Below are positions 25,195 to 48,935 of a DNA stretch of 64,000 nt, one piece after another (positions within the stretch are counted from its first letter, which is position 1; every line of letters starts with the position of its first letter). The notes beneath the pieces are model-generated. The model did not search any database. It was not told the DNA's origin and saw only the letters and a list, made by a program, of their open reading frames with translations. The DNA comes from a virus (lineage: Duplodnaviria > Caudoviricetes): IMG/VR virus record IMGVR_UViG_3300031820_000003, positions 22,868-86,867 of that record; one strand, written 5' to 3'. Both the position numbers and the translations under genes were made by a program.

Positions 25195-25196
25195 TC

Positions 25197-25553: not shown

Positions 25554-25589
25554 CTCGATTACTCCCCTACTGGATTTACTCTACGCAAC

Positions 25590-26345: not shown

Positions 26346-26465
26346 GTCGCTCTCCCTTGGCGCATCGCGCGCCCTACCCTGCTTGGCTATTAGCTAGCGA
26401 ACTAACGTAAAGCAAAAAATGAGTCCTGACTGATTTTGTCAAAACCCGTTGCATAAATGCCACTA

Positions 26466-26840
26466 TTACGGCATGACCTTGGGATGCGTGGCCATCGCGG
26501 CTGAGGCTTGCCCCGCAATGACGTTGAGAACCTCGGGGATATTGGCGATCTTGTCCGCCACCGCCGCTGTCTTGGATGGCTCGGACACCGCTGCTGTGGC
26601 CTGCGTGGTTACCACCATGGTATTCGGCAATGCGCCAGCGGATGCCTTCAGGCCAGCATTGCGGCGCACCCAGACTCCCCAAATGGTTGGCGCAACGGTG
26701 ACGATCGACCCGGTTAGGGTGGTCATGCTCGTGAGCAATACGGATTCGTCCCCCGCAGTCATCAGGCCGCGAGTGACGAGGACGCCGCCCAAAATCTGCA
26801 ACACGGTACGCACAAGCATCAGGATTTGCTCCTGGTTCAT
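26466..26840 (-). CDS. Putative holin (Pam3-gp28-like)
   Basis: MNQEQILMLVRTVLQILGGVLV.RG; 2 TM; next to endolysin. Confidence 0.7.
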   Translation of the reverse strand: MNQEQILMLVRTVLQILGGVLVTRGLMTAGDESVLLTSMTTLTGSIVTVAPTIWGVWVRRNAGLKASAGALPNTMVVTTQATAAVSEPSKTAAVADKIANIPEVLNVIAGQASAAMATHPKVMP

Positions 26841-26939
26841 GTCAGGCTCCACAATAAGAGGAAGAGAGGCCGCCAATACAGATTAGCGGCGATGATTACG
26901 CATACGGAAAGCAACAAGAAACCTATCGCTGCCGCAGTA

Positions 26940-27191
26940 TCATTCACGCGGCTTGCTGACTTTGTTGGGCGTCACCGATGAAAACGGAACAATCCCTCCC
27001 CACCAAAAATGGCATGTGAGGAATCCGGTTATGAAACCGGCGATCCATGGGAAGGCAGGGAAGTATGCGGAGATCGTCCAGACGAACCGCGATAGCGTGG
27101 CCGTGTTGTCATAGAGGGAATACGCTTCCATGACCGAGAACGACACGACGAGGATCAGCAGCCACGCCGCCCACTTCCAGTAACCCTTCAC
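26940..27191 (-). CDS. Putative holin/antiholin (2 TM)
   Basis: Hydrophobic; coupled to endolysin stop. Confidence 0.65.
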   Translation of the reverse strand: MKGYWKWAAWLLILVVSFSVMEAYSLYDNTATLSRFVWTISAYFPAFPWIAGFITGFLTCHFWWGGIVPFSSVTPNKVSKPRE

Positions 27192-27781
27192 GCGATTGCC
27201 CCTTGCACCATCTTAACCGCCGTCGCGGCGATTTCCTTGTCTCGCCTGATCCAATCGCCACCGAATCTGCCGAACGTGCGGAAGCTGCGATACACTGCGG
27301 CCCGACGACCCTCCTCATCAAGGATCACAGCGGGCACATCCTTGATGGCCATGACCCTGAGATTGGTCTGCGGCCCCCATGCGCCATCCGCCGTAATGCC
27401 GAGGCTCGCCTGCAGCAGCATAATCATGCGCCGCGTCCCCATGTTCACGCGAGTATCAAAGCAGAACAGGTCGAGGCCGATCGGCAGTCTCGGGCAGAAC
27501 GGCAGCCAATAGCTATCGTAGTAGATCGTGGTGCCGATCTCCTCTCCTATGTGCCGCACGTCGCCTTCAGGAAGCCCATGCGCTTCGCAGTACTCGTCAT
27601 AGTCAGCGTGAGTCAGGCCGCATTGCGTGGCCCCACCGGGGTCTTGCGGGTCATTGTCGAAGTTCCTAGGATTGGTCCAGTCGGCCGACGTGCCGGTGTA
27701 GACATTGCATTCTTGCTGAAGCACGAATGGGAGGCAGATTTGAAATCGCGGGTCCATCCAGTTTTCCTTGATGTCATCCAA
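27188..27781 (-). CDS. Endolysin, glycosyl hydrolase family 108 (start may be 27757)
   Basis: E..NDPQDPGGAT..G, FD..VNMG, DG..GPQT, FGGDWIRR. Confidence 0.9.
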   Translation of the reverse strand: MDDIKENWMDPRFQICLPFVLQQECNVYTGTSADWTNPRNFDNDPQDPGGATQCGLTHADYDEYCEAHGLPEGDVRHIGEEIGTTIYYDSYWLPFCPRLPIGLDLFCFDTRVNMGTRRMIMLLQASLGITADGAWGPQTNLRVMAIKDVPAVILDEEGRRAAVYRSFRTFGRFGGDWIRRDKEIAATAVKMVQGAIA

Positions 27782-30610: not shown

Positions 30611-31672
30611 TCATAATTTCACATACCAACTTCCCGTCAGCGCGGCGCTCAGGACATTGTGCGAGCTGCCCGAGCCGAGAGCGCTGATTGTGCCGGCGGG
30701 CGTAATGGTCACCGTTGGCGTGAAGTTGCCAGTGTTGAAGGCTGCGAAACCGCCGCCACCGAGAGTGCCTGCGGTGCTCGACGTAACTTGCTGATTGCCG
30801 CTCCACGTCTGCTGCGTGCCGGTAAAGGTGGGCGACACCGCCGGCAACTGCGCCTGTGTTAGCGTATGATTATCCTCGCCCGCGGTCGCGCCCGGCGTTG
30901 TCGGCGTATCGCCGCCTGACGTGATGTTCTGCGCGAGCAGAAGGCCGAGCGGGGCATTGCCCATGTCATCAACACCGACACCGCATATGCGCGCGCGGCA
31001 GTCATAGACCGTAATCGTCTTGTTGGCATTGAAGTCGGCCAAGCCGGATGCGCCCTTGCCGCCCGCGACCGTACAGAGGTGGCAGTTGGTCCACAGATAG
31101 ACGAACAGAGCTTGCGTATCGGCATTGGCTCGGCCCGTTGCGCCTGACGTAGCGCTGCCGATCGTCAGCCCATTGGCCTTGACCCATCCGGTGATAGTCT
31201 CGCCGGTCGGCCGGAACTTCAGGTCTCCTGTCGCGAAGATCGTGGTCGGATCGATGCCGCCGCCGCCCCCCGACCCACCTGACGGCCCGATGACGAGCGC
31301 GGACGGATAGTCGAACTGCACCACACCTCCCGCATCTGTTAGGCGGATGTGGACGGACCCATTGGCGAGGTAAAATGCGGGGACACGGCCATTTGCATCA
31401 AGCGGCAAGGGCCATGGATTCTGGATCGTCAGCGCTGTATCCTGGAACGAGTTCTGACGGGTGGCGACCGTGCCAACCTGATAGAAATACAGCAGGCCGC
31501 CAATGAGTGGCGTTCCGCAGGCATTGGCAGCGGTCGAGCATCCCACGAATGAGAATTGCTGGGTCAGGGAGACCGGCAGCGTGCCTTGCGCCGATGCCGG
31601 TGCGTAGCCGAATAGCAATAGGAGGGCAGCAATGGTAACTCTTGCTCGTATTGCAGTTAGTTTCATCGTCAT
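30611..31672 (-). CDS. Tail fibre with tail-collar domain and N-terminal Sec-type signal peptide
   Basis: GLLYFY.GT..LDANGR head-binding-type domain; TGDLK..GW..NG collar; MKLTAIRAR-VTIAALLLLFG-APASA|Q. Confidence 0.8.
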   Translation of the reverse strand: MTMKLTAIRARVTIAALLLLFGYAPASAQGTLPVSLTQQFSFVGCSTAANACGTPLIGGLLYFYQVGTVATRQNSFQDTALTIQNPWPLPLDANGRVPAFYLANGSVHIRLTDAGGVVQFDYPSALVIGPSGGSGGGGGIDPTTIFATGDLKFRPTGETITGWVKANGLTIGSATSGATGRANADTQALFVYLWTNCHLCTVAGGKGASGLADFNANKTITVYDCRARICGVGVDDMGNAPLGLLLAQNITSGGDTPTTPGATAGEDNHTLTQAQLPAVSPTFTGTQQTWSGNQQVTSSTAGTLGGGGFAAFNTGNFTPTVTITPAGTISALGSGSSHNVLSAALTGSWYVKL

Positions 31673-31823
31673 AACAGGGGTCCTGTTTTGGGCAACGTCA
31701 GGCGACGATTGGCATTGGCATGACCATCCGTTTGAACAAACGCTAATCATTTTCTGGCCGTGGTCAGTATTGTTGTTGAGCATTGCGCCTTTGATCATCA
31801 TCAAAGCGATAGACAACAGATGA
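31632..31823 (+). CDS. Small two-TM protein (antisense)
   Basis: AGGAGG SD; two TM; ATGA-coupled to the next ORF. Confidence 0.5.
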   Translation: MVTLARIAVSFIVITGVLFWATSGDDWHWHDHPFEQTLIIFWPWSVLLLSIAPLIIIKAIDNR

Positions 31824-31978
31824 TCTTCTTCATCGTCTGCTTGGTTTCCGTTTATTCCATCACTGAAGGGATGATCGTGTTCCCTTGGTCGGGCTGGCTA
31901 TTGCTGGCCCTGATCTTCTGCCGGCGCCGTAAGTCGACGCTGGACAGCCTGCGTGATGTGCTCGGCCCGGATGCCTAG
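31820..31978 (+). CDS. Small membrane protein (antisense)
   Basis: Hydrophobic 52 aa; coupled. Confidence 0.4.
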   Translation: MIFFIVCLVSVYSITEGMIVFPWSGWLLLALIFCRRRKSTLDSLRDVLGPDA

Positions 31979-33823
31979 ATTGTTGGCGAGATTGCGGGTC
32001 GCCAAATTGAAGGCGGTCGTCCGTGCTGGCGTTGGCGAGGCAAGAAGCGTCTGATAGGCGCGCGACCATTTCGAAGCCGACGCAGCGCTGGCCGGACTCG
32101 CAAGCCATCTCGTGAACATCCAGAGTGCAGCCGTCGATCCTGCACCGATAGCCGTTCCGCCGCCAAGCCCACCTGTAGCCACGTCAGTCGCGAGCAATGC
32201 TGCGTCCTTCGCCACATCCATCAGCACCAGGAACGAGGCGGAATGCGATGTGCTGCTTTCCCGCAGCGCGCCTTTGATGTGCTGACCCATCTGCGCGATA
32301 GCCTCGATCGAGGCCCGGTGCGCAGGACTTGGTGTAAATGGTGTCAGGTCGCCATGCTCCTCGCGCAGCCGGTTTACGGCTGTCACGAACTTGGCAAGGC
32401 TGAATTGGCCGGTCGCCGGATTGAATCCGAGCGCCCGCAATGTCGGGTCGTCAGCGTGCTTGTTGAGAATGCCCTGTAGCTTCTTGTTCGCCTGTGAGAG
32501 CGGACCAAATCGGCTTTCGGCCGCATCGAAGGCCCGCTGCGCACGAGCCCCGCCCTGCCGCCCGATATTGTCCCGTATGTCCGCCGTCATGGCACGGGTA
32601 ATTTGGTTATAGTCCGCAGCGTTGTAGCCGGGATGAGGGGTCGCCACATTACCGGCCTCGCGCGCGTCCACCCGCGCCCGGTGTGCACCGTTGAAGCTGG
32701 CGCCCTGCCCGATATTCTCGAATTGCTCGAGCCCCTGATCAGGATTGGGATGCCCGGCAGCCGTGCGTGCGGCCTTGACCCTTTGCACCGCGGCAGCCGT
32801 GCGCGGCATCGGCATGACCCGATCGGGAGCAATCTGGCCACGCACATTGCCATAAAGGCCGTCTATGGCCTGCCGATTGGCGTCTATAGCGTCCTGAATG
32901 CGCGATTGACCGGCAACGGTGCCGGCCGCCTCCTCGGTCTGCGCAACTCGCTCGCCAATCTTCTCGCCGGCAAACGGCACCTGCCGCAGCTTGGCGGTCG
33001 TCGCCTGCACCGCAGAGCTATCCGAAACCACTCCGCGCGGCAGCGGTGCCCCGATGATATCGGCCGTGCGTGCGGCCTGCTGACCAGGTGTTGTTCCGGT
33101 GGTCAGGCGAGGTCCTACGGCAGCCCCGAGAGCACCACCCAGCCCGAGGCCAATAAGCCCGGTTGTCGCCCCACGGGTCGCTATATCGCTTGGGGATGCC
33201 CCCTCGCTAGTGGCCTCGCCAGTGCCATAGAGAGCGCCGCCTATGGCGCCTGTGCGCGCCCCCTGTATCGCCCTGGCCCCAATGCCACCCGCACGCATGG
33301 CGCCTGCGCCGGGGACTGGCATCGCCAGGGTGCCCGCCAACTGTCCGGCGAGGTAAATCTGCGGATGCTGCTCCTTGGCGAGGTCCTGGTTCTCAAGCGC
33401 CGCCTGCCGCCCGCGGTTATAGGCGTCCTGCACATCCGGATCGGGATGACCGGAGAGATAGCCACTGAGGAGCTTGGCCGCCCCAAGAACAGGCCGCAAT
33501 GCCGCAGCGCCGCTCGCCCGCTCCTCTGGCGTCTTAGGCTCGGGCAGCCCAGACGCGGACGCAACGCCTTCCAGAGCCGGCGAGAAGCCGAATGTGAGCC
33601 CTTCCGCAGCAGCGGTGCCAAGAGCCTCCCCACCGCTTACCTGCCGCTTTGGCGGCGGTGGCGTGTCGTGGTCGTCCGCAAAGGGATCGCCCGCTGGCCC
33701 CGCAGGAGCGACGCCAGTCCCGCTCGCGCCCCGCGCCGGTGCGTCGAGGTCATCGGCAAACGGGTCGACCGGAGGCGGCTCGACGCCTCGCGGATGTACA
33801 ACACCGACATATGTGGGCGTCAT
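31898..33823 (-). CDS. DNA ejection protein (P22 gp16 position)
   Basis: 641 aa, Ala/Gly-rich with hydrophobic segments; DDPFA repeats. Confidence 0.75.
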   Translation of the reverse strand: MTPTYVGVVHPRGVEPPPVDPFADDLDAPARGASGTGVAPAGPAGDPFADDHDTPPPPKRQVSGGEALGTAAAEGLTFGFSPALEGVASASGLPEPKTPEERASGAAALRPVLGAAKLLSGYLSGHPDPDVQDAYNRGRQAALENQDLAKEQHPQIYLAGQLAGTLAMPVPGAGAMRAGGIGARAIQGARTGAIGGALYGTGEATSEGASPSDIATRGATTGLIGLGLGGALGAAVGPRLTTGTTPGQQAARTADIIGAPLPRGVVSDSSAVQATTAKLRQVPFAGEKIGERVAQTEEAAGTVAGQSRIQDAIDANRQAIDGLYGNVRGQIAPDRVMPMPRTAAAVQRVKAARTAAGHPNPDQGLEQFENIGQGASFNGAHRARVDAREAGNVATPHPGYNAADYNQITRAMTADIRDNIGRQGGARAQRAFDAAESRFGPLSQANKKLQGILNKHADDPTLRALGFNPATGQFSLAKFVTAVNRLREEHGDLTPFTPSPAHRASIEAIAQMGQHIKGALRESSTSHSASFLVLMDVAKDAALLATDVATGGLGGGTAIGAGSTAALWMFTRWLASPASAASASKWSRAYQTLLASPTPARTTAFNLATRNLANNLGIRAEHITQAVQRRLTAPAEDQGQQ

Positions 33824-35343
33824 TTGGCGTACTTGATATCCCCGTTCGGGGTCCGGTACGGGTCACCCGACTTGAGCCCTTGCGCCTGTTTCCATGCCTG
33901 CGCCTGCGCCGGGGTCTTGATCGTCGGCGGGGCCTCTGGAGCGCCCAGCAGGGTCGGATTGGCGGCCTCTTGGTCCGTGAATGCCGGATGGGCCTTGACA
34001 TAATCCGCCACCTGCTTGGCGAAGCCGTCATCCAACACGCCGCCATGCTTGGCCCGATAGTCGATCGCCATGTCACGAATCTGCGTCGAGCGCTGGCCGA
34101 TCCGGTCCATGATGTTGATCAGCATACGGTTACCCCAAACCGTATTCTGCAGGTTGGGGTTCGATTTCACTACCTGCTCGATCTGCTGCGAGAAGATACG
34201 CGCGCTGGCGCCACCCGCCTCCATGAGCTGATCGCGCTGCTGGTTGACCGCGCTCAATGTGGTAATGGCGTTGATCTTCTCGAGGCCCTGTTGCAGGGTT
34301 GCCGCGGCCGGCGAACCGAACAGATCGCGGACCTTGTTCATGGCAAGCGAGGCATCTGCGCCAATGCCGGTATAGGTGCGCGGGTCGCTCAGAATGCCGT
34401 GCGCTAGCGTCAGCACGGGCTTCATATCGCGCTCGTATTGCGTCGCGGAAGCCTGAATGCCTTCCCATGTTTTGCCGGACTGGTCGATGGTCTGCTTTTG
34501 GGTTGCCGTGGCCGCGGTCGTCCCAGATGCGAGGTTCTTCTGCTCGGGGGTCAATTCGACATTCTTGCCGAGAATATCGCGGATTTGCTTGGCAGTTGCA
34601 TCGTGGGCTTCCGCTGCCTTTTCATAGGTCTGCGCTTGAGCAGTATCCCCGAGTGCTCCATAGCGCGCCCCCTGCTGGCGAAGATAGGTGGCCGCCTTTT
34701 CATGATTGCGAGCGGTGCCTTCGCTATAGAAGCCATTGGGCACGCTGCTGCCGCCGGGTTGCGGCGTCGCCTGGGCGGTTTGCTGTGGCTGAGTATTGGG
34801 CGAACTCGCGCCCATGAACGGCGCAGGGCTTGGCCCCGCATTATCCGAACCCATAATCTGCTCGCCGCCTGGCAAAATGCTTCCAGGCGGCTTGCCGGTA
34901 ATGCTGCCCGGTCCCGCATTTGTCTGCGGCATGTGGGCATCGGCGGATGGCTGCGTAGGCGGCGGCGCGTTCCCCGGCGCAGGATTACCTGTGCCTACAG
35001 AAGGGGCACCGAAGCCGCCTGAAATCTTGTCTGCGTTCTGAAAATCCGTCGCGGATTGATTAGCGAGCTGCATCCTTAGAAGCTGCGGCAACATCTGCTG
35101 CGCAGCTTCCGTTCCGCCAAGACGCGAGATTGTATCAGCTACCTTATTGTAATCGACGTTGCCATTCTCATCCTTTGGAAGGCCATTTTGAAATGCTGTC
35201 TGCTGCGCGCGCTTCTGCGCATACTGTTGGCCCTCTTGGAACTGCTCAGGAAGTTTGCCGATCCAACTAAAATCAACAAGAGGCGCTGCATAGTTCGGAG
35301 GCCGAGGTGCGCCCGGAAGCTCCACATTGTCATAGGCGGCCAT
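33820..35343 (-). CDS. DNA ejection protein (P22 gp20 position)
   Basis: 507 aa, Gln/Ala-rich; YAAPLVDFS N-terminus. Confidence 0.75.
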   Translation of the reverse strand: MAAYDNVELPGAPRPPNYAAPLVDFSWIGKLPEQFQEGQQYAQKRAQQTAFQNGLPKDENGNVDYNKVADTISRLGGTEAAQQMLPQLLRMQLANQSATDFQNADKISGGFGAPSVGTGNPAPGNAPPPTQPSADAHMPQTNAGPGSITGKPPGSILPGGEQIMGSDNAGPSPAPFMGASSPNTQPQQTAQATPQPGGSSVPNGFYSEGTARNHEKAATYLRQQGARYGALGDTAQAQTYEKAAEAHDATAKQIRDILGKNVELTPEQKNLASGTTAATATQKQTIDQSGKTWEGIQASATQYERDMKPVLTLAHGILSDPRTYTGIGADASLAMNKVRDLFGSPAAATLQQGLEKINAITTLSAVNQQRDQLMEAGGASARIFSQQIEQVVKSNPNLQNTVWGNRMLINIMDRIGQRSTQIRDMAIDYRAKHGGVLDDGFAKQVADYVKAHPAFTDQEAANPTLLGAPEAPPTIKTPAQAQAWKQAQGLKSGDPYRTPNGDIKYAK

Positions 35344-36053
35344 CAGGCAAATGCCCCGAATATACTCTTGCCAACATTACCAAGGCCACCAAGCGCCTGG
35401 CCTCCGACCGTATTCGATCCAAGGCTAGCTACTCCGCCAAGCGCATTCCAGAAGTTCGCGGAGGCATTGAGCGGCGCGAGATCGGCCGATGCCTGCGCAT
35501 TGCCCTGGCCTACCTGCGTGCCATAGGCCGCATTGCCCTGGGTAGTGAATGAGTTATTAAGCTGGCCACCAAGGTTCTGGTTGCCTTGCAACACCTGTCC
35601 AGCCGTCGCGGTCTGCTGTGGCAGATATTGCGAAAGATTGTTGACGTAGTTTTGCCAGCCCGTATTGGCGAGACCCTGGCCATACTTCAACAGGTCGAGA
35701 TTGGTGCCACCCGAATTAAGCTGGCCAGTCGCGGCCTGATTGCGGAGAATATTCTGGTTGCCTTGGTCTAATTGAAACTGATAACCGGGATTGTTCTGGA
35801 ACCCGGCAACCGCCTGCGCATTGCCCTGTGGGCCATTGAGGCCGAGCGCATTGCCGTATTGCGTGGCGCCCTGCGTGTTCTGATTGAAGGCCGTCGTAGG
35901 CGCATTGATGCCTGTCTGTCCATAGCTGGTCAGCGCGCCGCGGCCTTGGCCAAACAGGTCCGATAGCTGGTTGTAGCCAAGCTGCAAACCCTGCTTCTGA
36001 TCATTGGCAGCGTTTTGCTGATCTTGCGAACTGAAGATATCGAACAAACCCAT
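35343..36053 (-). CDS. DNA ejection protein (P22 gp7-like)
   Basis: FQNNPGYQFQLDQG...AATG.LNSG motif. Confidence 0.8.
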   Translation of the reverse strand: MGLFDIFSSQDQQNAANDQKQGLQLGYNQLSDLFGQGRGALTSYGQTGINAPTTAFNQNTQGATQYGNALGLNGPQGNAQAVAGFQNNPGYQFQLDQGNQNILRNQAATGQLNSGGTNLDLLKYGQGLANTGWQNYVNNLSQYLPQQTATAGQVLQGNQNLGGQLNNSFTTQGNAAYGTQVGQGNAQASADLAPLNASANFWNALGGVASLGSNTVGGQALGGLGNVGKSIFGAFA

Positions 36054-36310
36054 CAGAGCGTCCTCACAAATATGGTCGCCGGATCGGCCGTGCTGCGATA
36101 TAGGCCATTCAACGGAACACCGGCCGCAGCAGCATTCGCATTCGTCGGCACCGCAACTCCCGTCAGCGGGCCAAGCGAGTTCTGGTTCAAAAGCTGGACG
36201 AGCTTATTCACCGTATCCAACCATTGTCCGAATGCGAGTGTCGGACGGCCATCGGGGAGAACAACCTGAAAGTTGGTCGGCGGCAGCGGGAATAGGACTT
36301 GCGTGGTCAT
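36053..36310 (-). CDS. Small tail protein
   Basis: Coupled; AAAAGVPLNGLYR. Confidence 0.65.
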   Translation of the reverse strand: MTTQVLFPLPPTNFQVVLPDGRPTLAFGQWLDTVNKLVQLLNQNSLGPLTGVAVPTNANAAAAGVPLNGLYRSTADPATIFVRTL

Positions 36311-38043
36311 CAGTCGCCCACATAGCGCGGGTCGCTAGCCTGCGTTGCCTTGATGAATCCGGTATAGACAGGATCGGTCACGTCGAGACGCCATCGGCAG
36401 CCCATGGGTCCTGACAAGCCCATGGACTTGACCGATGCGCGGACCCGACGTGACCTACCCTGCTGGCCGATCGACCGCAGCAGTGGATTTCCCCAATTCA
36501 GGCCGCCGTCCTTCGATATCGAGACGGCCACCTGTGGATTGACCATGTTATCGGGCGCCGTGACATCGGTTGCCGTCCCGCCCGAAGTCCAGGCATGAAC
36601 GAACGTCGTGCCAATGAGGTCGATATTGAATGCGTCGATGACGTTCACGGCCCATGTACCGTTGGCCTCCGTGGTGCCGCCGACATTCACCACGTTCACC
36701 GTATCGCCGGTAATGACGTTGGCCGTATTGTTGACCCGCAACCGCACAACGCCGCCGGTTCCTGACGAGGTGCCGAGCACCGTCATGACGACGCTCAGAA
36801 CGGCCTGCCCAACGCCCATCACGAAATCGAAGTCAGCCCGCGCCACCCGTATCTGGTTCGGGAAGTTGTCCACCGGGCCGCTTTCGATGCGGAATAGTTG
36901 CGGTGCACCGTTCTCCGTGTAGTTCGTATCGTCCACGTAAAGCAGGTTACCGGACTGAATATCGCCCATCAGCCATTTGCCGAATGCCGGATGGCCACCC
37001 GATCCGCGCCATCGGCTTTGCTGTCCGGTCGATGCAAGCAGGCTCGATCGCTCATTCCATTTCTGCGTGGAGAGATTGAACTCCCATGTCACCGAGGCGG
37101 CATTGCTGGAGATCGTCCAGAACTTCTTGCCGGCATATTCGTACACGCCTGCATCCAGCAGGTTGCCCTTACGGTTCTCCGACTCAATGAAGCGATCGAC
37201 ATCCGGCGATGAGACCTTGATGGGCTGGAACGTCGCCCATGACAGGCGATAGACGCCGAAGTCCTGTGCCGCCCATATCAGGTCGTCAAAGCCGGTTTCC
37301 CATCCAGCAATCGCATTGGCCTGTAGAAGGCCGAAGGGAATTGTCGTCAGCCGCGAGTACGGGAAGGCTGGAGAGGGTTGCGCCGTATCCTGCCACACCT
37401 CGCAGCCGCCCGTCGTAAAGAAAAACATCAGGCCCGAATAGGCGATGCCGCGCAGCAACGTCACATCGGATTTTGACTGCAGCTTGACGAAGGTCTGCGT
37501 GTTGATCGTACCGACCGAGTTGATGGGCGATGCGAATACGCGGCCGTCCGCGATCGTGTAGAAGAAAAAGCCGTCCTGAAAGCTTATCGAGTTCGGTTGC
37601 GGGAGGTTGCCGCCGCCATTGTACGCCGTCGGCGCTCCACCTCCACTAAGAATATAAGCACCGTTGTCGATATCGACGGCAACAACGTCCGGTGAGGCCG
37701 CCAAATCGCGGGCAATTGATACTTTCTTCGTTCCTGGGAATGCCCCGAGGCTTGCGTAGGTTCCATTGACATCGATCGTGCTCGCATTTCCGCTCCATGT
37801 CTCATAGGATAGATTCGTGACAATCAGGCCCCCGCGATAGCCGGTCTGCCCGGTCGCGGCATTATTGTGCTGCGAGAGGCCGGGCTGCCGACGCCATACC
37901 TGCTTGGCAGGCCCGGACGGCTGTTGCGGATCATCGATCGGCTCGGCCGTGCAGTTGAGAAGCCGCCCCGCCGATTCCTGCGTGCTCGCCCCCGGAAAAC
38001 TCGACAACGGGAAGCGAATGGGAATCGGATCGCCTGTCGCCAT
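36310..38043 (-). CDS. Tail hub / packaged-DNA stabilization protein (P22 gp10-like)
   Basis: 577 aa, beta-rich; SKDGG..W, SIGQ.G motifs. Confidence 0.85.
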   Translation of the reverse strand: MATGDPIPIRFPLSSFPGASTQESAGRLLNCTAEPIDDPQQPSGPAKQVWRRQPGLSQHNNAATGQTGYRGGLIVTNLSYETWSGNASTIDVNGTYASLGAFPGTKKVSIARDLAASPDVVAVDIDNGAYILSGGGAPTAYNGGGNLPQPNSISFQDGFFFYTIADGRVFASPINSVGTINTQTFVKLQSKSDVTLLRGIAYSGLMFFFTTGGCEVWQDTAQPSPAFPYSRLTTIPFGLLQANAIAGWETGFDDLIWAAQDFGVYRLSWATFQPIKVSSPDVDRFIESENRKGNLLDAGVYEYAGKKFWTISSNAASVTWEFNLSTQKWNERSSLLASTGQQSRWRGSGGHPAFGKWLMGDIQSGNLLYVDDTNYTENGAPQLFRIESGPVDNFPNQIRVARADFDFVMGVGQAVLSVVMTVLGTSSGTGGVVRLRVNNTANVITGDTVNVVNVGGTTEANGTWAVNVIDAFNIDLIGTTFVHAWTSGGTATDVTAPDNMVNPQVAVSISKDGGLNWGNPLLRSIGQQGRSRRVRASVKSMGLSGPMGCRWRLDVTDPVYTGFIKATQASDPRYVGD

Positions 38044-38059
38044 CGATCAGCATTTCCAG

Positions 38060-38470
38060 TTATTTAGTATAATCCCGAGGTGACCAAGGCGATGTATAAC
38101 CCTGGTCGTGGAAAAATTGTCCGTCTTGCTGCCACCCATATTTCAAGGATGGATGATCAGCCAAACTAACCGCATCTGTTCCGGCTGCCTTAGCGGCATC
38201 CTCAATAGCGAACAGGTGCGATGGAGCTGCATATGTCTTCCCCTCGACTTGAATTGCGGGCTTGAATGGTTTCCCTTCTATCATCTGGTCTGCTGTTAAA
38301 GTCTTGCCGACTTTCTGATCACTGGCGGCAGTCTGCCCTTGGGTAACAGGATTTCGCTCGTGTCCTCCTGGATTTGAATACCCAGGCGCCATCGGGTTAA
38401 ATGGCTTGAAATTCTCCATAGCCCGATCTGATACCAAGCCCTGCGCATAAAGGTTCTTCAAATCTGCCAT
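38060..38470 (-). CDS. Hypothetical late protein (lower GC)
   Basis: 136 aa between gp4-like and gp10-like genes. Confidence 0.65.
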   Translation of the reverse strand: MADLKNLYAQGLVSDRAMENFKPFNPMAPGYSNPGGHERNPVTQGQTAASDQKVGKTLTADQMIEGKPFKPAIQVEGKTYAAPSHLFAIEDAAKAAGTDAVSLADHPSLKYGWQQDGQFFHDQGYTSPWSPRDYTK

Positions 38471-38871
38471 CAGAAATACAAGGCCCGCAATGGCTCATAG
38501 GTCGCGCGCAACCGAAGCTGCTGCTTCAGAGATAATGCCGCCGAGCCCGCACCCAACTGAACCGGGCTCGGCGGCCCCCCCAACCCCTTGGTGAGCAGCG
38601 AAACGAGGTCTTGCGGAGTCGCGCCGAACTTGACGGCGCATTCACCAGCGAGAATGTCAGCGAGATCGGCAAACCATGCGCCGGGAATGTTCGAAGGGTC
38701 GGGGATATAGCAAATTTCGAGCTGCGCCAGCTTGCGAAAGATCGCATCCACCTTCTCAAAGACATAATTGTAGTCCTCGGGGTCGGTCGGCTGACCCGCG
38801 GCCAAGACGCCAAGATTGGCCAGCGTCTCGTTCACCAGGTCATTGATCGTCCGAAAGGCGGTATTGGGCAC
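38470..38871 (-). CDS. Head-tail adaptor (P22 gp4-like)
   Basis: T..DLV.E.L.NLGV.AAGQ.....ED. Confidence 0.8.
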   Translation of the reverse strand: MPNTAFRTINDLVNETLANLGVLAAGQPTDPEDYNYVFEKVDAIFRKLAQLEICYIPDPSNIPGAWFADLADILAGECAVKFGATPQDLVSLLTKGLGGPPSPVQLGAGSAALSLKQQLRLRATYEPLRALYF

Positions 38872-38874
38872 CTA

Positions 38875-39234
38875 TCAGCTCCCCACTGGCTCGCCAGGAA
38901 GCGCGGATACCAATTTGCCGGCATCGACCGTCGCATGCTCGATTGCGGCATTCGGGAAGGTCTTTGGCTTCGGCGGCCGGCCTCGCTTGCGTGGGGCATC
39001 GCCTTCGACCTGAAAATGCTGATTGCGCTTGATGCGCTCGAGCAGGCTGACCATGCGCTTGCGGGTAACGAGCTTCCATGTGCCGTCCCGTGGATTGCTG
39101 ACGCGCTCGGTGAACTCCTCCTCCTGCTTGCCCTCGTTCGGGTCAACATCCTGCGCGATATTGGCTTCCCATTCGCGACCGAATGCGGTCGTCTTGAAAG
39201 CCTCATCGGCATCCGGCAGCCATGTGACTTTCAT
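38875..39234 (-). CDS. Hypothetical head-module protein
   Basis: 119 aa from MKVTW. Confidence 0.65.
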   Translation of the reverse strand: MKVTWLPDADEAFKTTAFGREWEANIAQDVDPNEGKQEEEFTERVSNPRDGTWKLVTRKRMVSLLERIKRNQHFQVEGDAPRKRGRPPKPKTFPNAAIEHATVDAGKLVSALPGEPVGS

Positions 39235-39644
39235 GGGATGAGCCCCACCCGCCAATTGAGGCCCGAGACGGTCGCCACGCCGCGAGCTCCAAGCGGAGAG
39301 CCGGCGCGGATAGCGATGGCGGACTGACCTGCTGTGATGGAGAACGAGGCATTCGCGCCGAGAGCATTGATCGTCTCGCCCAGCGCAGGGAACAGGTTCA
39401 GGGCGTTCGCCGTGTCGTTCATGATCAGAACGCCGGTCGATGCTTCCATTGAGCCGACCGATGGCAGCACGAGCGAGCCGGTTCCTACCGACTGATCGAC
39501 GTGATTGCCCTCGGAGATGATCTTGAAACCGGTCGCCTGGTTGTTAGCGACGCTGGCATTGATGTTGCGCTGCATCTGCGCGCCCGGCCCACCAAGGCCA
39601 AAGACGAACATCTGCTCCACAGCATCCAGGGTAACGCTAGGCAT
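39231..39644 (-). CDS. Putative virion beta-protein
   Basis: 137 aa; AAAGGA SD. Confidence 0.7.
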   Translation of the reverse strand: MPSVTLDAVEQMFVFGLGGPGAQMQRNINASVANNQATGFKIISEGNHVDQSVGTGSLVLPSVGSMEASTGVLIMNDTANALNLFPALGETINALGANASFSITAGQSAIAIRAGSPLGARGVATVSGLNWRVGLIP

Positions 39645-39658
39645 AGGATGGTCCTTTC

Positions 39659-39710
39659 AAAAAAGGACCGCCGCCGCCCCGTTCTGCATCACGGGACAGC
39701 GGCGGCTAGT
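39659..39710 (-). terminator. Rho-independent terminator-like hairpin after the capsid gene pair
   Basis: GCCGCCGC...GCGGCGGC stem followed by TTTTT on the minus strand. Confidence 0.6.
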
Positions 39711-39763
39711 TGGGTCGTGTCGTCGGTTTCGGGAGGAAACCCTCCGGGGAAACAACGCCGGAG

Positions 39764-40369
39764 CTAGCAGGCCGGGGAAGTAAAGCCCGGCGCATTCGAT
39801 GCAGGCAGGCAGCCGCCGTCGTTCGGACCGAGAAACTCGATATCGAACACGATGGTACCTGTGGTGGGCGCGGCACCCGTGAACGTCACGGTCAGCCACA
39901 AGTCGAAGCCGCCGTCCGCGCCCGTCGTCGCAATGCCGTTGCCAGTGGCCTGTGCGCCCTGCCCCGCCGTGACGATGGTGAGAGCAGGAGCGCCGGTTGC
40001 CGCCGTCTTGATATCCTGCGCAGATACAAGCTGAGCGCCGGCCGAAGCCGTGCCGAGCGACATGGTGCACGTGGTCGCCGCATTGCAAACGGCTGACTGG
40101 AACCAATTGCCGCGCAGGATGAACGCATTGTAGGGCAGCGCGCCGACTTTCACGCTGCAGGTGCCCGCCGCAAACACGCACGCCGGGCCGTTGTCAGCCT
40201 GCACACTCGTTGCCGAGACGGTGAAGATATGCCGCTCGTAATAAGTCTGCTGGCTGGGATAGTAGCGAGGCCCAAAGGTGGGCGGGATCGTCAGCGCATA
40301 GGCAGCGATGACGCCAGGGACGACGAGGAGCGCAAGAGCGCGCACCGCCGATCGAAGCAGATTCTTCAT
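39764..40369 (-). CDS. Capsid-adjacent (decoration position) protein with Sec-type signal peptide
   Basis: AAGGAG SD; MKNLLRSAVR-ALALLVVPGVI-AAYA|L; 6 Cys in 3 pairs. Confidence 0.75.
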   Translation of the reverse strand: MKNLLRSAVRALALLVVPGVIAAYALTIPPTFGPRYYPSQQTYYERHIFTVSATSVQADNGPACVFAAGTCSVKVGALPYNAFILRGNWFQSAVCNAATTCTMSLGTASAGAQLVSAQDIKTAATGAPALTIVTAGQGAQATGNGIATTGADGGFDLWLTVTFTGAAPTTGTIVFDIEFLGPNDGGCLPASNAPGFTSPAC

Positions 40370-40379
40370 AGTGCTCTCC

Positions 40380-41525
40380 TTACGCATCCGTGGCAGAGGC
40401 GGCGAAAATCGTGAACACGCCCCACTCTTTGTAGTTGCCTGAGAAGTTCAGCTTGGCGATCTTCTTGAAGCCGTAGGCCATTTCTACGCCTACGCCTCGA
40501 TAGAATTGGTAGTCGTCTTCCTTCAAGAATGTCGGCCGCGGCATACGACCCCACGCCCAAGCCATTGCGGATTGGCCGCACAGGAATGCCGGCGCCACCT
40601 GAATGCTGCCCGAGCCGGCCGTCGTATAGGTGACCGGAAGGCGCACAGTCAGTTCCGGGATTTCCCGGATGATGATGCCGTTGTAGATCAGGTCGCCATC
40701 CTGAAAGAGCGGATTGGCGTCAAGACCATCGTCCTCGCGCGGACGAGCCTGCGTGTTGGCGTTGATGATCGTCGGGTCGGCCTGCAGATCACGGAACTGC
40801 AGGGAGTTCGCGAAGCAGATGAAGTATTCGCGACCGTTCTTGAGCTTGTAGGGCCGAATGCGCGGGTTAGCCAGCTTGGCAAGCCGCTTGGCCTTAAGCA
40901 GCATGGACGCCGACAGGGTCATGCCGGCCGTGATGTTCGCCATTGCGGTGGCGAACGTGGCCGAGAAGTTGCCCGTAGCGCCGCCCACCAGAACACGGTC
41001 CTGCTGGTCGGCCATCCACGTGTTGCGCTGGGCCGCGGTCGCCGCATCGAACAACGCGCCGTTGACGCGCTGGCCGTTGATGGAGCCAAGACCCGTTGGC
41101 GCCGTCGAGTTCAGGGGAATTGCATAGAACGCGTCGATGATCTCGTCGCGCTGCAGTTCCTTGCCCCAATCCTCCAGGAGCGGCCGAGCGAGGCCGAACA
41201 GGTCGATTGAGGACTTCTGTTCTTCCGCCTTGGCGATCTTGACGGCATTACGCGCCCAATCGATCCACATGCGATCGCCGAAGTTGTCGATCGCCTCTTC
41301 GTTGCCGACCAGGGCGCCGGTCGAGATGGCCTGCGCCTTGAGACGCGCAACCAGCGGAATGTTGATCTGCTCGCCGCCCTTCTTGAGGTCATTGATAACG
41401 CGAATGATCGCGGTCAGCTCGGTGCCGACATAGGGCGAGAACAGGTTTTGACGGATGTATTCTCGGGTAACTTCCTTGCGGAAGACGATAAGCTTATTAT
41501 TGGCTTGGACTGTCGAGAGTGCCAT
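40380..41525 (-). CDS. Major capsid protein (DUF4043-like)
   Basis: 381 aa; L.GNEE..DNF..IDWARNAV; follows scaffold. Confidence 0.88.
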   Translation of the reverse strand: MALSTVQANNKLIVFRKEVTREYIRQNLFSPYVGTELTAIIRVINDLKKGGEQINIPLVARLKAQAISTGALVGNEEAIDNFGDRMWIDWARNAVKIAKAEEQKSSIDLFGLARPLLEDWGKELQRDEIIDAFYAIPLNSTAPTGLGSINGQRVNGALFDAATAAQRNTWMADQQDRVLVGGATGNFSATFATAMANITAGMTLSASMLLKAKRLAKLANPRIRPYKLKNGREYFICFANSLQFRDLQADPTIINANTQARPREDDGLDANPLFQDGDLIYNGIIIREIPELTVRLPVTYTTAGSGSIQVAPAFLCGQSAMAWAWGRMPRPTFLKEDDYQFYRGVGVEMAYGFKKIAKLNFSGNYKEWGVFTIFAASATDA

Positions 41526-41568
41526 AGCCAGCCCCTTTCGGAGTTGGCTAGAGCGTCATGCAGTACGT

Positions 41569-42567
41569 CTAGCGAAGTGGTGTGAATGCGTCCGCGAAGA
41601 TTGCGCCCTCCGACCCATCGAAGCCGCGCGGGTCCATGCGTGGTTGACCACGCCCTCCGCCGGCATTGGAGAGATCTGGAAGGATTTGCTGACGCTGTTG
41701 TCTTTGGCCGTTGTTCCCGTTTCCGGGCGAGCCGCGGCCACGGCCCTTGGCAACCATTGCAAGCGCACGGTTGAGGTCCTCGGGGTCGACGCCGAGCGTT
41801 TCGGTCATCTGATCCATCAGTCCTCGCGTACGCTCCTCGCGATAGGCATCCAATCGCGGTTCGGCCCACTTCATCAGTGCGCGGCCGGGATTGGGTGAGC
41901 CCATGATGCGTTGCGCTTCTTGGCGGACGAGCGGATCGTTCTTGCCCTTGATGAGTTCCTGATAGGCGAACTCGAACTCGGGGCCGTGCTCCTCGTGCGC
42001 AGCAGCCATGCTGGCATTGAGGAACCGCTCGTCCATCTCCCGTTGAAGGGTTTGACGCATTTCATCCCGCGTGGCCTTTTCCCAGCCAGTCGGGTCCGCA
42101 AACATGTCGGGACGCTCGGGTGCCTTCGGCTGCTCCTGGGGAGCCCGTAGGCGCGACATTTCATCGACGCGGCCGGTGAGAGTGGCAATCTGTTCCCGCA
42201 ATTGGCGGGCTTCTGCCTCGGCCGCGCGGGCACGTTCGGACTCCTCACGAAGCCTGCCGGATGGAACGAAGCGCTGTGTTCGTTCGTCTCGCCGCTCCTG
42301 TGGAGGTTCCTGGACTTCAGGCTCCTCCTCGGATTCATCCTCTTCGACTTCGGGCTCGTCCTCGTCCTGCGCATCGATTTCGTCGCTCTCCTCGTCTGGA
42401 TTGTCCCCTACGGGGTCCTCCATCTCCTCGAGCGACTTGTCGCCGTCGTTTTCCGGGTCGTCGATGCTATTGGCCTCCGCGAAGATTTCCTCCTCGGTGG
42501 CCTGGATAGCAGCTTGTACGCGTGCGTCCTCGTCACTCGCTTGCGCGAGCTCGCTTCTGGTTGCCAT
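41569..42567 (-). CDS. Scaffolding protein
   Basis: Acidic N-terminus, FVPSGRLREE, coiled coil; precedes capsid. Confidence 0.85.
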   Translation of the reverse strand: MATRSELAQASDEDARVQAAIQATEEEIFAEANSIDDPENDGDKSLEEMEDPVGDNPDEESDEIDAQDEDEPEVEEDESEEEPEVQEPPQERRDERTQRFVPSGRLREESERARAAEAEARQLREQIATLTGRVDEMSRLRAPQEQPKAPERPDMFADPTGWEKATRDEMRQTLQREMDERFLNASMAAAHEEHGPEFEFAYQELIKGKNDPLVRQEAQRIMGSPNPGRALMKWAEPRLDAYREERTRGLMDQMTETLGVDPEDLNRALAMVAKGRGRGSPGNGNNGQRQQRQQILPDLSNAGGGRGQPRMDPRGFDGSEGAIFADAFTPLR

Positions 42568-42683
42568 GATATTCCCTTATCCCCGATATCGCTCAGGTAT
42601 GCGCTGCCCTTGTCGCCGGGCCAGCGTGGCGAGAAAGTTGGCCGTCTCGCGCGGCACGCCTATGTCGTCAGGCGCGAACGATC
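42568..42683 (-). promoter_or_regulatory. Candidate structured cis-regulatory leader RNA of the scaffold gene
   Basis: Four consecutive hairpins; two share loop G(G/A)CGACA; SD lies in the last loop. Confidence 0.55.
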
Positions 42684-43130
42684 TCAGTTTGTTTGCACAT
42701 GGAAGCCATGCGCGACCACATTGGCGACGCCACCAGCACCGGCCGCACTCGCGGTCACGGTGATGGTCGTGTTGATGGCGTTCGCCGGGATCGGCATGGG
42801 AAACTCGACAATCAGCGGCGGCGGGTTGGGCGTCGTCGCCGCTGCCGCCAGCGTGTTCAGCGTATAGATCATGCTGCCGCCGATCGTATTGGCAACCGTG
42901 ATCGTGATGACGGCGGTTGCGGTCGGATTGATCTCCGTAACCTCAAAGCCGCTGATGTAGGTCAGCCGCGCAGGTGACGCCGGCAGGGTTGCCGTGGTCG
43001 CCGCGGTGGTGCCCTGTGCGCTGTTGGTGACCGGAATAGCGCCGGCCGGATAGCCACCAGGCCCGATCGCCTGCGCAAAGGCAGCGCTAGAGAATGCGAG
43101 CGCCGCAATCAGTGCAATGAGCCTGTACAT
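42684..43130 (-). CDS. Thr/Ala-rich beta protein with Sec-type signal peptide
   Basis: MYR-LIALIAALAF-SSAAFA|Q. Confidence 0.75.
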   Translation of the reverse strand: MYRLIALIAALAFSSAAFAQAIGPGGYPAGAIPVTNSAQGTTAATTATLPASPARLTYISGFEVTEINPTATAVITITVANTIGGSMIYTLNTLAAAATTPNPPPLIVEFPMPIPANAINTTITVTASAAGAGGVANVVAHGFHVQTN

Positions 43131-46492: not shown

Positions 46493-46914
46493 CAGGCCAC
46501 AAGCTTGCCGGCCGCCTCGTCAAATGCCGCCTTGAGCTTGGCCGATTGGGCATTGAGCACGTCGAGCTCGGCCCGGCGGTCGCGGATTTGCGCCTGCAGG
46601 CCCGTCAGAACGTCAGCGGCAGCCTTTACCTGCTGGTCCGCACTCTCGGTCGCCGCAGCCATGCGGCTCTTGTGGGCCTCGTGGGCGGCATCCAGGTCCC
46701 TTTTGATCTTGGCGGCCGCCTCACCATGATCATGCAACGATAACGCTGCGGCATTTCTGGCTTTATGCGCTTGGGTTTGCGCCTCTATTGCCGCCTCGTG
46801 TGCCGCCTTGGCGCGCGCCTCGGCCTGCCTGGCCTGCTCTACAATGGCGGCATGGTTGTCGATCGCCTCCATCGCCGCCTTCAGCGAGTCCGCAAACGCT
46901 CTCAGGTCGCTCAT
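46492..46914 (-). CDS. Coiled-coil protein
   Basis: Ala-rich heptads; coupled to portal stop. Confidence 0.7.
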   Translation of the reverse strand: MSDLRAFADSLKAAMEAIDNHAAIVEQARQAEARAKAAHEAAIEAQTQAHKARNAAALSLHDHGEAAAKIKRDLDAAHEAHKSRMAAATESADQQVKAAADVLTGLQAQIRDRRAELDVLNAQSAKLKAAFDEAAGKLVA

Positions 46915-48935
46915 GCTGCTCTACTCTTCTGTTTCGGCCGCATGGCCAGTTCCTTGCGCTTGGCCGCATGCTCGGCAGCGCGCGTCTGCGCCGTCGCATA
47001 AAGCTCGGCCATCTTGAATTGATGCTCCTGCTCGTTCTGCCGCATCTCGAGCGCAATGCGCTGGCGTTCCGCCGCCTCACGCTCGCGCTCCAGTGCTGCA
47101 TCGCGCTCCTGTGCCTGCGCCTCGCGCTGCTGGCTCGCCTGCTCGGCCTGCACGCTGAACTGAGCCTTGGCGATCTCGGCCTGACCCTTCTGAGCCTGCG
47201 TTTGCGCCGTGATTTGCGCAATCTGCATCTTCGGATCAGGCTTCTGCGCGGCCTGCTGCATCATCATGTTGAGCTTGTCGCGTATCTCCTGCGGCAGCGG
47301 CATCAGCTCAAAGAGGATATTCGGCGGAACAACGCCCGGCGGCAGCGTCTTGAGCGTCTCCAGCGTGTCGAGCAGCACATTGGCAACGTCAGGACCCTCA
47401 TCCAGGACGAGATCGACCGCGATATTACCCAGCCGATTGACCCAACACGGCCGCCCGAACTGATCCATGCGCACGCCGTTGAGCTGAATGAGCTGCATGG
47501 CCTGCTGATTACCCGCATTGACCCTCAGCCAGCGCTCGTTCTGCCAAGTGGAGCGCACGATGTTCCAAACGGTTCGATAAACACGGAGCTTCCAAGCCCT
47601 GTAATACTTGATGAATGATCCCAACTCCGCCAATCCTGCTTTCTGAAGCATGTTGATAGCGACACCGGAGTGCATGTCAGGAGCATCTGCTCCCATGATA
47701 TCGGGTGTGATGTTGGCAAACTGGTCGATTTCATTGCGTGCGTCCTGCATCAGTCCGAGTTGCGCTTGGAGATCAGGCTGCCACTCGTCAACCGTGACTT
47801 CTTTGCCAGGATTTCGCTCAACAACGCCATCAGGACGCGCCCACTCGGTGCGCGCCTTTTCAGTATCATCCACTGCGCCCTTCTCCATGATGAGCCGCCG
47901 AGTATTGGATATGAACAATGCCTTTGAGCGACGCTGGTTGAGCTCGTCCTGAGGGCCTTTAAGGTTCCGCGGGAAGCCATAGCGATCTCCATCATGATCC
48001 ACAGCAGCCGAGAACATGATGAACCGGTTCATCGGCCGATTGCGCTCGTCCAAGAATGGCGAAACGCCCTGCGTCAGCAGCAGCCACGAGCAGTAGAAGG
48101 CCCAATACCATTTGCCCTGATACTTATACCAGTGCTCGACAAGGCGAAGACGCTGCTCGTTTACGTAAATCCATTTGAACTCGCGGTCGCTGTGCGTCGT
48201 CAGGTCGAACCCGGTATCGACCATCAAGGTTCGGAGTTCAGCCTCCTTGTCGGGGAATAGCTCGACGGCTGACTCAACATCGAGCCATTTGGCGATACCC
48301 ATGTAACGGGCGTCGCTGAAGTCTGGTTTGTAGGATCGAGGGTCGTAGAAGAAGTCGTCCCCGAAGACGAAATCACCAGAAATGTCCGGGTCAGCGTGGT
48401 CGCCGGGGACGAGCTTGAGTTCGATGCCACCGATGCCCTCTATCGCTGCTTGTTTGCATGCCTCGAAGTCGAGGTACTCAAAGTCCATTCCGTCCAGAAC
48501 AGCCCTTACCGATTGGGTGACCAGATCGGCTCCGGCTTGCGCTTGGGGATTGCGAGGATAAGCTTTGGGGTCCTGTCGCAGCTTCTGTACAAGGCCAACA
48601 ATGCCGTCAATCTTGCGGTTTGTTCGGTTGAAAGTAATGACAGGTTGTCGGCGCGTCCGCAGGATACGGATTTCCTCAGGAGACCACTGGGCTCCGTGGT
48701 AGTAATGCCGGCTGACCTTTTGTTCCTCATACTCGAGCACCTTGGTCGCGAGATAATCGGTATACTGCTGGCGCAGGCGCGAGACCGGGAAGAATCCGTC
48801 TTCATCGGACGTATAGTCGAAGTCATCAGGCTGGTTCGTGGTCCAGTTATGTCCAACCGTGCCACCACGCGATTTGAAGTTCTCCGTTCCGATGTTGGCA
48901 TTTGGCCGCATCGACGGACGCGCAGCGTAGACCAT
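46911..48935 (-). CDS. Portal protein (P22-like, long C-terminal coiled-coil barrel)
   Basis: YYHGAQW..RRQP..N; D..DARY; QDE.N.RRS; SGVAI. Confidence 0.92.
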   Translation of the reverse strand: MVYAARPSMRPNANIGTENFKSRGGTVGHNWTTNQPDDFDYTSDEDGFFPVSRLRQQYTDYLATKVLEYEEQKVSRHYYHGAQWSPEEIRILRTRRQPVITFNRTNRKIDGIVGLVQKLRQDPKAYPRNPQAQAGADLVTQSVRAVLDGMDFEYLDFEACKQAAIEGIGGIELKLVPGDHADPDISGDFVFGDDFFYDPRSYKPDFSDARYMGIAKWLDVESAVELFPDKEAELRTLMVDTGFDLTTHSDREFKWIYVNEQRLRLVEHWYKYQGKWYWAFYCSWLLLTQGVSPFLDERNRPMNRFIMFSAAVDHDGDRYGFPRNLKGPQDELNQRRSKALFISNTRRLIMEKGAVDDTEKARTEWARPDGVVERNPGKEVTVDEWQPDLQAQLGLMQDARNEIDQFANITPDIMGADAPDMHSGVAINMLQKAGLAELGSFIKYYRAWKLRVYRTVWNIVRSTWQNERWLRVNAGNQQAMQLIQLNGVRMDQFGRPCWVNRLGNIAVDLVLDEGPDVANVLLDTLETLKTLPPGVVPPNILFELMPLPQEIRDKLNMMMQQAAQKPDPKMQIAQITAQTQAQKGQAEIAKAQFSVQAEQASQQREAQAQERDAALEREREAAERQRIALEMRQNEQEHQFKMAELYATAQTRAAEHAAKRKELAMRPKQKSRAA

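Follow-up and report, generated by a model that had tools for sequence, protein, structure and literature searches.

The window analyzed here is a stretch of 64,000 nucleotides (bases 22868-86867 of the 86.9-kb IMG/VR virus record IMGVR_UViG_3300031820_000003) in which three late phage genes, here called A, B, and C, encode proteins with predicted Sec signal peptides. Two prophage-like units are present in the record, and the three genes belong to the second one, which occupies approximately window positions 20000-63400 and has an integrase gene at its end (62094-63416); unless stated otherwise, all coordinates are those of the window. The second unit is a temperate P22/Pam1-like podophage (short-tailed) whose hosts are soil bacteria of the Bradyrhizobium type, and its uncultured relatives number in the hundreds. 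Its late genes are on the minus strand in the P22/Pam1 order: large terminase, portal, several small Thr/Ala/Gly-rich proteins, C, scaffold, major capsid protein, B, small head-completion genes, a gp10-like hub, three ejection-type proteins, and A, followed by an HNH-AP2 endonuclease gene on the plus strand, two fiber-cluster genes, and the lysis cassette. Gene A (30611..31672, minus strand) encodes a tail fiber of 353 amino acids, gene B (39764..40369, minus strand) a candidate capsid cement-protein counterpart of 201 amino acids, and gene C (42684..43130, minus strand), located between the portal-side genes and the scaffold gene, a small jellyroll protein of 148 amino acids.

Predicted signal peptides of A, B, and C

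Each of the three ATG start codons has a Shine-Dalgarno-like motif 6-8 nucleotides upstream (AGGA for A, AAGGAG for B, and AGGA for C), and the N-termini that follow bear out what an earlier reading made from the letters of the window (the sequence-only reading) had claimed, namely that three late genes start with basic, hydrophobic, AxA-type signals at supported ATGs. The predicted signal peptide of A covers residues 1-28 (31589-31672) and has basic residues K4, R9, and R11, a hydrophobic h-region of approximately 12-17 residues, and a predicted cut at APASA/QGTLP after residue 28 (the slash marks the cut). In B, the predicted signal peptide or signal-anchor covers residues 1-25 (40295-40369), with K2, R6, and R10, 16-18 hydrophobic residues including Pro-Gly, and a predicted cut at AAYA/LTIPP after residue 25. 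That of C is shorter (residues 1-19, 43074-43130), with R3 and a predicted cut at AAFA/QAIGP after residue 19. The basic n-region of all three proteins is kept in their homologs. By reading, neither a Tat motif (RR) nor a lipobox (Cys at +1) is present in the three N-termini. It is worth noting that signal-like N-termini are confined to A, B, and C within the set of 26 late proteins that was examined, and that an outer-membrane barrel protein encoded by the same genome (25590-26345) shows the same N-terminal architecture, thereby providing an in-genome example of a genuine signal.

The sequence-only reading had pointed to homologs as a check on its claim, and the signals recur there in all three families. 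The A family has more than 1,600 proteins, and its signal statistics were taken from the best 120. The signal is present in 113 of these 120 homologs with a median length of 22, and the remaining seven resemble truncated gene calls. At the cut site, position -1 is Ala in 109 of the 113 sequences (96%), position -3 is Ala in 76% and either Ala or Val in 98 of the 113, and position +1 is Gln in 88%. The signal sequence drifts freely within the family while the n/h/c pattern is retained, as expected from selection on a working signal peptide. Similarly, the signal is present in approximately 79 of 81 B homologs; practically all of them show basic residues at the start, then a hydrophobic run, and a near-invariant A25-L26 followed by Pro. 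The C signal is found in 19 of 27 homologs (eight are without it), and its site reads AFA/Q, AHA/Q, or ANA/Q.

It is highly improbable that these N-termini are artefacts, either mis-called starts or chance hydrophobic stretches without function. Some homologs do begin downstream of the signal (the seven of 120 in the A family), and the first 41 nucleotides of A overlap an antisense open reading frame. However, the ribosome-binding sites are in place at the right spacing, and across more than 200 homologs the frame is open and the n/h/c pattern is kept despite sequence drift. Moreover, no in-frame ATG, GTG, or TTG restart was found near the cuts of A, B, and C, which argues against true starts further downstream, a possibility that the sequence-only reading had raised against itself.

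Cysteine pairs and relatives without signals

A and B each have six cysteines in three close pairs, with exactly the spacings given by the sequence-only reading. They are located at residues 45/52, 197/200, and 225/230 in A (Cx6C, Cx2C, and Cx4C) and at residues 64/71, 95/101, and 187/201 in B (Cx6C, Cx5C, and Cx13C). The window copy of C has zero cysteines, and the Cys pair found elsewhere in its family is restricted to signal-bearing members. The two cysteines of a pair covary without exception in the three families. Both cysteines of the A 45/52 pair are present in 29 sequences and neither in 10; for the B 95/101 pair the numbers are 30 and 33, one cysteine alone never being found, and for the C-family pair they are 14 and 13. 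Signal-less cement relatives have 0-1 cysteines, compared with a median of six in the B family, and a conserved NC...HC pair is missing from signal-less fibers.

Relatives without the signal were also compared with the predicted cut sites. An Astrobacterium prophage with the same gp10-like hub encodes a signal-less fiber that begins with M-AGTLP, i.e., at the predicted cut site of A; a Microvirga fiber and the fiber of another metagenome-assembled genome are signal-less as well. MS_010 of the Vibrio phage VPMS1 and a cement-like protein of a Rhodomicrobiaceae prophage, both signal-less, align from residue 27 of B. No signal-less paralog of A or B was found in the record, and the sole paralog of C in the record is the signal-bearing one of the other prophage. 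The positions of A, B, and C are all kept in a related phage (L006/L036), and signal-bearing A homologs are found in prophages of Bradyrhizobium japonicum, Bradyrhizobium sp. C9, and Bradyrhizobium sp. AS23.2, hosts that are diderm and have a periplasm. The signals and the Cys pairs are real, conserved, and lineage-specific.

These comparisons also bear on whether the signals lead to export. The virion copies might bypass export, the precursor being mostly cytoplasmic and its N-terminus being kept or cut by another protease, or the N-terminus might serve as a membrane tether, above all in B, for example for timing or localizing assembly. This could be supported by the hydrophobic run of the B family, which is of membrane-helix length (median 24, compared with 14 and 13 in the A and C families), and by the AlphaFold2 (AF2) model of B, in which residues 2-25 form a helix. 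In addition, Porphyromonas phage capsid proteins with predicted signals have been explained as prohead-protease substrates (Matrishin et al. 2023, PMC10367356), and a fifth of the window's late proteins carry cysteines though they are cytoplasmic, so that cysteines alone are no proof of export. Nevertheless, we consider a bypass or tether rather improbable. A and C have textbook short h-regions and AxA/Q sites conserved over more than 100 divergent sequences, and the Ala residues that selection has kept at -1 and -3 point to signal peptidase I. The signal-less homologs start exactly at the cut site, the Cys pairs covary as disulfides do and accompany the signal, and a prohead protease gene was not seen in the module.

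Gene A as the counterpart of a tailspike

The predicted signal of A is followed by a Cys-stapled loop and a head-binding-type domain (approximately residues 46-116); a Gly linker then leads to a collar-like domain, and a variable tip comes last. Positions 39-95 of the A family profile match residues 10-65 of the Pam1 tailspike chain 7eeq (E 3.5e-8), and 9vyg is matched as well; the single A sequence matches the tailspike head-binding domain with E values of 8.4e-4 to 1.7e-5. Since this match lies just after the signal, the predicted mature N-terminus of A would line up with the native N-terminus of a spike anchored in the virion. The middle part of A shares 41% identity with the Pam5 tail fiber and, in tblastn, 36% identity over 137 residues with "tail collar domain" proteins of Bordetella phages, and the JGI label of some A homologs is microcystin-dependent protein. 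The collar-domain label that the sequence-only reading had given to A finds its basis in the tblastn matches to annotated collar proteins; the Collar domain of Pfam (PF07484) was not recovered, as no Pfam family matches A at E <= 0.01.

Conservation in A is highest in the anchor/head-binding and collar parts, and the C-terminal tip is variable. Such a combination of conserved anchor and variable tip resembles the usual pattern of a virion receptor-binding protein. The A gene is located after the ejection-protein genes, as is the tailspike gene of Pam1. Judged by its sequence matches, A is the counterpart of a genuine virion part with a tailspike anchor domain and not a moron of unrelated origin.

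Gene B as the probable counterpart of a capsid cement protein

Behind the signal or anchor, B has an N-terminal arm that is conserved (residues 26-46) and then a jellyroll body, in which the three Cys pairs are located. The gene starts 10 nucleotides past the stop of the major capsid protein gene (40380..41525, minus strand), which is assigned by a family match (PF13252) and encodes the presumed binding partner of B. The same order is found in Pam1, where the gene is the cement gene, and in VPMS1, L006, and L030. In VPMS1, MS_010 (L001:6004-6447) directly follows the PF13252 capsid gene and shares 34% identity with B over 97 residues. Among the 39 invariant or near-invariant positions of B, 10 are located in residues 25-46.

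The AF2 model of B (pLDDT 82) consists of the N-terminal helix, a flexible arm, and a beta sandwich. Its best Foldseek match is the Pam1 cement chain 7eel_H. When the model was re-aligned with VIA, the top four matches were all phage cement proteins of the Pam1, GP4, and KHP30 types: 7eel_H (Z 8.9, root-mean-square deviation 5.9, 136 residues aligned), 8h89_J (Z 8.6, deviation 3.0, 123 residues aligned), 7dn2_1 (Z 8.1), and 7dou_4 (Z 7.7). Unrelated jellyrolls reach Z 6.8 or below, and the Z values of the cement proteins are themselves middling. B has no Pfam match, a PDB sequence search with the B profile was empty, and nothing was found in a species-genome scan with the B profile. By its modeled fold and its position, B is the likely counterpart of a genuine virion part, a capsid cement protein with putative capsid binding, and not a moron of unrelated origin.

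B also matches phrog_20969 (E 3.2e-10), and this family and the VPMS1 annotation would make it an Rz-like spanin. We reject this assignment on the modeled beta-sandwich fold, the position in the head operon, and the separate lysis cassette, which has its own Rz-like gene 12 kb from B. The label "Rz-like spanin" of phrog_20969 probably goes back to the VPMS1 annotation and is likely to be wrong, the family being cement proteins by position and fold.

Gene C

The AF2 model of C is a small jellyroll (pLDDT 84.6), and its matches in the PDB are generic viral jellyrolls with no specific relative among them. Within the set of viral models, C is matched best by a protein of 126 residues from Curvibacter phage P26059B (E 4.8e-9, TM 0.83), and the Atlas clusters of C are 100% viral. 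No match to cultured phages was found by tblastn, also when the threshold was as lax as E 5 and when the query was a signal-less member of the family, and a PDB sequence search with the C profile was empty. In L006, the C homolog, which has both the signal and the Cys pair, is located between portal and scaffold. In the explanation that we prefer (see below), C would be a second small jellyroll decoration.

Neighboring genes

The remaining late genes were assigned as follows, all on the minus strand unless stated. The large terminase gene (49612-51144) is followed by that of a P22-like portal protein (46911..48935; PF16510, E 1.8e-90). Immediately past the portal-side genes, a 204-amino-acid Thr/Ala/Gly-rich protein (45575-46189) has a match to the tail-fiber family phrog_38233 (E 5e-11 over 70 residues) and could be a head fiber or decoration without a signal. 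Another of the extra head-module genes between portal and C (44587-44910) encodes a 107-amino-acid protein with six cysteines, four of them in two zinc-finger-like CxxC motifs (50/53 and 78/81). The scaffolding protein gene (41569..42567) is assigned from its position and acidic composition only, in synteny with Pam1 and L006. Downstream of the head genes lie the gene for a P22 gp10-like tail hub protein (36310..38043; phrog_578, with PF11134 Phage_stabilise in the L006 ortholog), which is part of the presumed docking site of the fiber, and three genes for ejection or internal virion proteins upstream of A (31898..36053), none of which has a signal.

On the other side of A, a homing-endonuclease gene with HNH_3 and AP2 domain matches (30067-30603, plus strand) is inserted between A and the next fiber-cluster gene. 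This insert is absent from the related phage L036, in which A and the next fiber-cluster gene are 5 nucleotides apart. The two fiber-cluster genes p235 (29334-30041) and p485 (27875-29332) are without signals; the relatives of p485 share only its first ~90 residues. In L036, the fiber cluster is followed by two more signal-bearing genes (L036:12347-13580), one for a 325-amino-acid protein and one for an 81-amino-acid coiled-coil-like protein, that have no counterpart at this place in the window. The lysis cassette (24718..27781) consists of a cytoplasmic GH108 endolysin without signal or signal-anchor-release (SAR) domain (27188-27781), a Pam3 gp28-family holin (26466-26876), the outer-membrane beta-barrel with signal peptide (PF13505) between the holin and the Rz-like gene, and an Rz-like protein with transmembrane and coiled-coil segments (24718-25194). 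By capsid-protein comparison, the nearest cultured relatives are the Pseudanabaena podophages Pam1, Pan3, and Pam5 (32-36% identity).

The record's other prophage, unrelated to the second unit, is a podophage of the T7/SU10-like type. Just upstream of the window start (G000:C1:15324-20715 of the record; L041:3324-8715), a series of four or five adjacent late genes, located between the capsid and tail-tube genes of this prophage, encodes proteins with signal-like N-termini and even Cys numbers, one of which is a clear C-family member (hhalign 99.85%). One of the signal-bearing proteins is 684 amino acids long and has an arabinofuranosidase-like segment. A signal-bearing protein of 203 amino acids matches the Pam1 cement protein in a 19-residue motif only (E 4e-4) and has no match to the B profile, and we do not claim it as a cement protein. 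A similar outer-membrane barrel gene is located in this prophage at genome positions 1322-1993. The two units share near-identical starts of divergently oriented genes (window 12037-13372 and 56073-57305) and similar pairs of excisionase-like and integrase genes (18190-19691 and 61592-63416), which suggests either a tandem of two temperate phages related to each other or a record that was joined wrongly.

A proposed assembly from two compartments

According to textbooks, the assembly of tailed phages is wholly cytoplasmic. In P22, phage L, and T4, tailspike addition and the binding of decoration proteins (Dec, Soc) are terminal steps that can be carried out in vitro with heads already finished. 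What the present data show directly is the presence and conservation of the signals, the homology with virion parts, and the covariation of the cysteines, and from these we infer export, cleavage, oxidation, and joining after lysis. Our preferred explanation, which we put forward as a distinct possibility, is that A, B, and C are outer virion parts made as Sec precursors and joined to the particle at lysis. Sec would carry the three proteins over the inner membrane, signal peptidase I would cut them at AxA, and the host Dsb system would form their disulfides in the periplasm. Meanwhile, heads with portal, hub, and ejection proteins would fill with DNA in the cytoplasm, giving particles without fiber and cement. 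Opening of the inner membrane by the holin and lysis of the cell would bring the two pools together, and fiber and cement would bind as the last assembly steps. Since the endolysin is cytoplasmic, the holin lesions must in this case be large enough for folded proteins. With somewhat more reserve, we suggest that throughout a large group of soil podophages, most of them uncultured, the particle may be finished from two compartments, its maturation being coupled to lysis and dependent on host Sec and Dsb. The sequence-only reading had likewise proposed that fiber and decoration proteins are exported and then added; the signals, the Cys pairs, and the homology to virion parts speak for it, as does the presence of signal-bearing late proteins, a C-family member among them, in the unrelated podophage of the record, whereas export and joining are the conditional parts of that proposal.

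Several points weigh against our preferred explanation. The signal calls come from simple rules and conservation, and a close cultured relative was not found in the capsid and tblastn comparisons, the family being known here from its sequences. The long hydrophobic run of B could be an uncleaved signal-anchor, in which case B might stay anchored in the membrane. In addition, hhalign of the B profile with the Pam1 cement protein gives a probability of 1.3%, i.e., no sequence support, so that the cement assignment of B rests on fold and synteny. The Cys pairs could oxidise after release instead of in the periplasm. A spacer of ~220 nucleotides (31673-31897; 212 nucleotides in L036) separates A from the upstream gene, which makes a promoter of its own possible for A, although none was found there in a consensus scan. 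The signal-less p235 and p485 may be the real receptor-binding proteins, which would leave A free for another role. Finally, joining after lysis would cost efficiency through dilution.

Some of these points lead to a different explanation, in which A, B, and C are exported but are not on the particle. Virion-derived domains would have been re-used in the envelope, p235 and p485 would be the real fibers, and the capsid would be without cement. The exported proteins might then mask a receptor or exopolysaccharide (superinfection exclusion, or protection of progeny from debris) or alter the surface of the lysogen. Exported phage proteins outside virions are well known (lambda Lom, lambda Bor, and T5 Llp), and T5 Llp masks or occupies the receptor. 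The spacer upstream of A, the conserved N-terminus and variable remainder of p485, the temperate lifestyle indicated by the integrase, and the presence of an outer-membrane barrel gene all fit this explanation. So do the Astrobacterium and Microvirga relatives (L008 and L014), which have the same hub and signal-less fibers; the genes for B and C are both absent from them, which would make B and C dispensable add-ons. Signal-bearing Porphyromonas phage genes, too, have been taken as envelope modifiers (PMC10367356).

On the other hand, the head-binding domain of A and the N-terminal arm of B are the most conserved parts, which is hard to explain if the particle is no longer bound. The genome has no virion fiber with an A-like tip, so A cannot be a decoy for one. 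B and C are located tightly inside the head operon, ~10 nucleotides past the preceding stop, and this place is kept in relatives. Furthermore, gp085, gp086, and gp087 of Cellulophaga phage phi18:3 (NC_021794; L043:4892-10584) have signal-like N-termini ending with Ser-Gln or Ala-Gln, and their annotation as virion, structural, or tail proteins is given in the record as "based on experimental MS/MS proteomics analysis" (MS/MS, tandem mass spectrometry). This is the only experimental hint we found of signal-bearing proteins reaching a particle, and it is a weak precedent because the phage is unrelated and co-purification is possible. On balance, export without incorporation into the particle seems less likely to us than joining at lysis, although the alternative of host display or a non-virion role, which the sequence-only reading had allowed for, retains some probability.

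If fiber and cement proteins do mature in the periplasm, Sec, signal peptidase, and Dsb of the host would all be needed for infectious and stable particles, and each would be a new place at which host resistance or phage-host specificity could arise. Measurements of burst and of lysis timing would also gain new meaning, as particles would be incomplete until the membrane opens, and the persistence of such phages in soil could be explained by outer parts stapled with disulfides. The proposal can be put to a direct test, as there are Bradyrhizobium isolates with prophages bearing signal-bearing fibers (L009 and L011) and the predicted mature N-termini are precise. In that event, annotation pipelines should also no longer discard or relabel signal-bearing late proteins, as happened to the B family under the name "Rz-like spanin".

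Comparison with known systems

No description of Sec signals on a tailed-phage fiber or cement protein was found in the searchable full-text literature, which fits the claim of the sequence-only reading that the assembly route is undescribed; the claim is narrowed by GenBank, which already annotates the signal-bearing phi18:3 proteins as virion proteins detected by MS/MS. Phi18:3 belongs to an unrelated family with a Bacteroidota host and is likened to the window phage by N-termini and annotation only, its signals not being discussed in the searchable literature. What is established here is that fiber and cement, two known virion proteins, occur in a form that has Cys pairs of the disulfide type and export signals that are conserved; the assembly route itself would be categorically new.

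The closest counterparts of A are the tailspikes of Pam1 (7EEQ) and Pan3 (9VYG and 9VYH) and gp16 of Pam5, all of which begin with the anchor domain and lack a signal, whereas A has an extra Sec signal of 28 residues, a disulfide-type loop, and further Cys pairs. Similarly, the cement proteins of Pam1 (7EEL chain H), Ralstonia phage GP4 (gp1), and Helicobacter phages KHP30 and KHP40 are, like B, small jellyroll or immunoglobulin-like proteins with an extended N-terminal arm, and their genes lie immediately behind a capsid gene of the PF13252 type or a related one. They lack a signal peptide and contain 0-1 cysteines, whereas B has a conserved signal of 25 residues and three Cys pairs and shares no detectable sequence similarity with them.

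Lambda Lom and Bor, T5 Llp, and the Porphyromonas phage genes resemble the genes described here in having phage-encoded Sec or lipoprotein signals, and they act on the host envelope. As accessory genes, they have no virion parts among their homologs, whereas A and B are counterparts of a tailspike anchor and, probably, of a cement protein, and their genes lie at the corresponding positions. The likeness to the Inoviridae is of another kind, as their pVIII and pIII are virion proteins with signal peptides and their particle is completed at or beyond the inner membrane. However, Inoviridae are extruded without lysis and have no cytoplasmic capsid, whereas the window phage is tailed, with an HK97-type head, and would be finished from two compartments.

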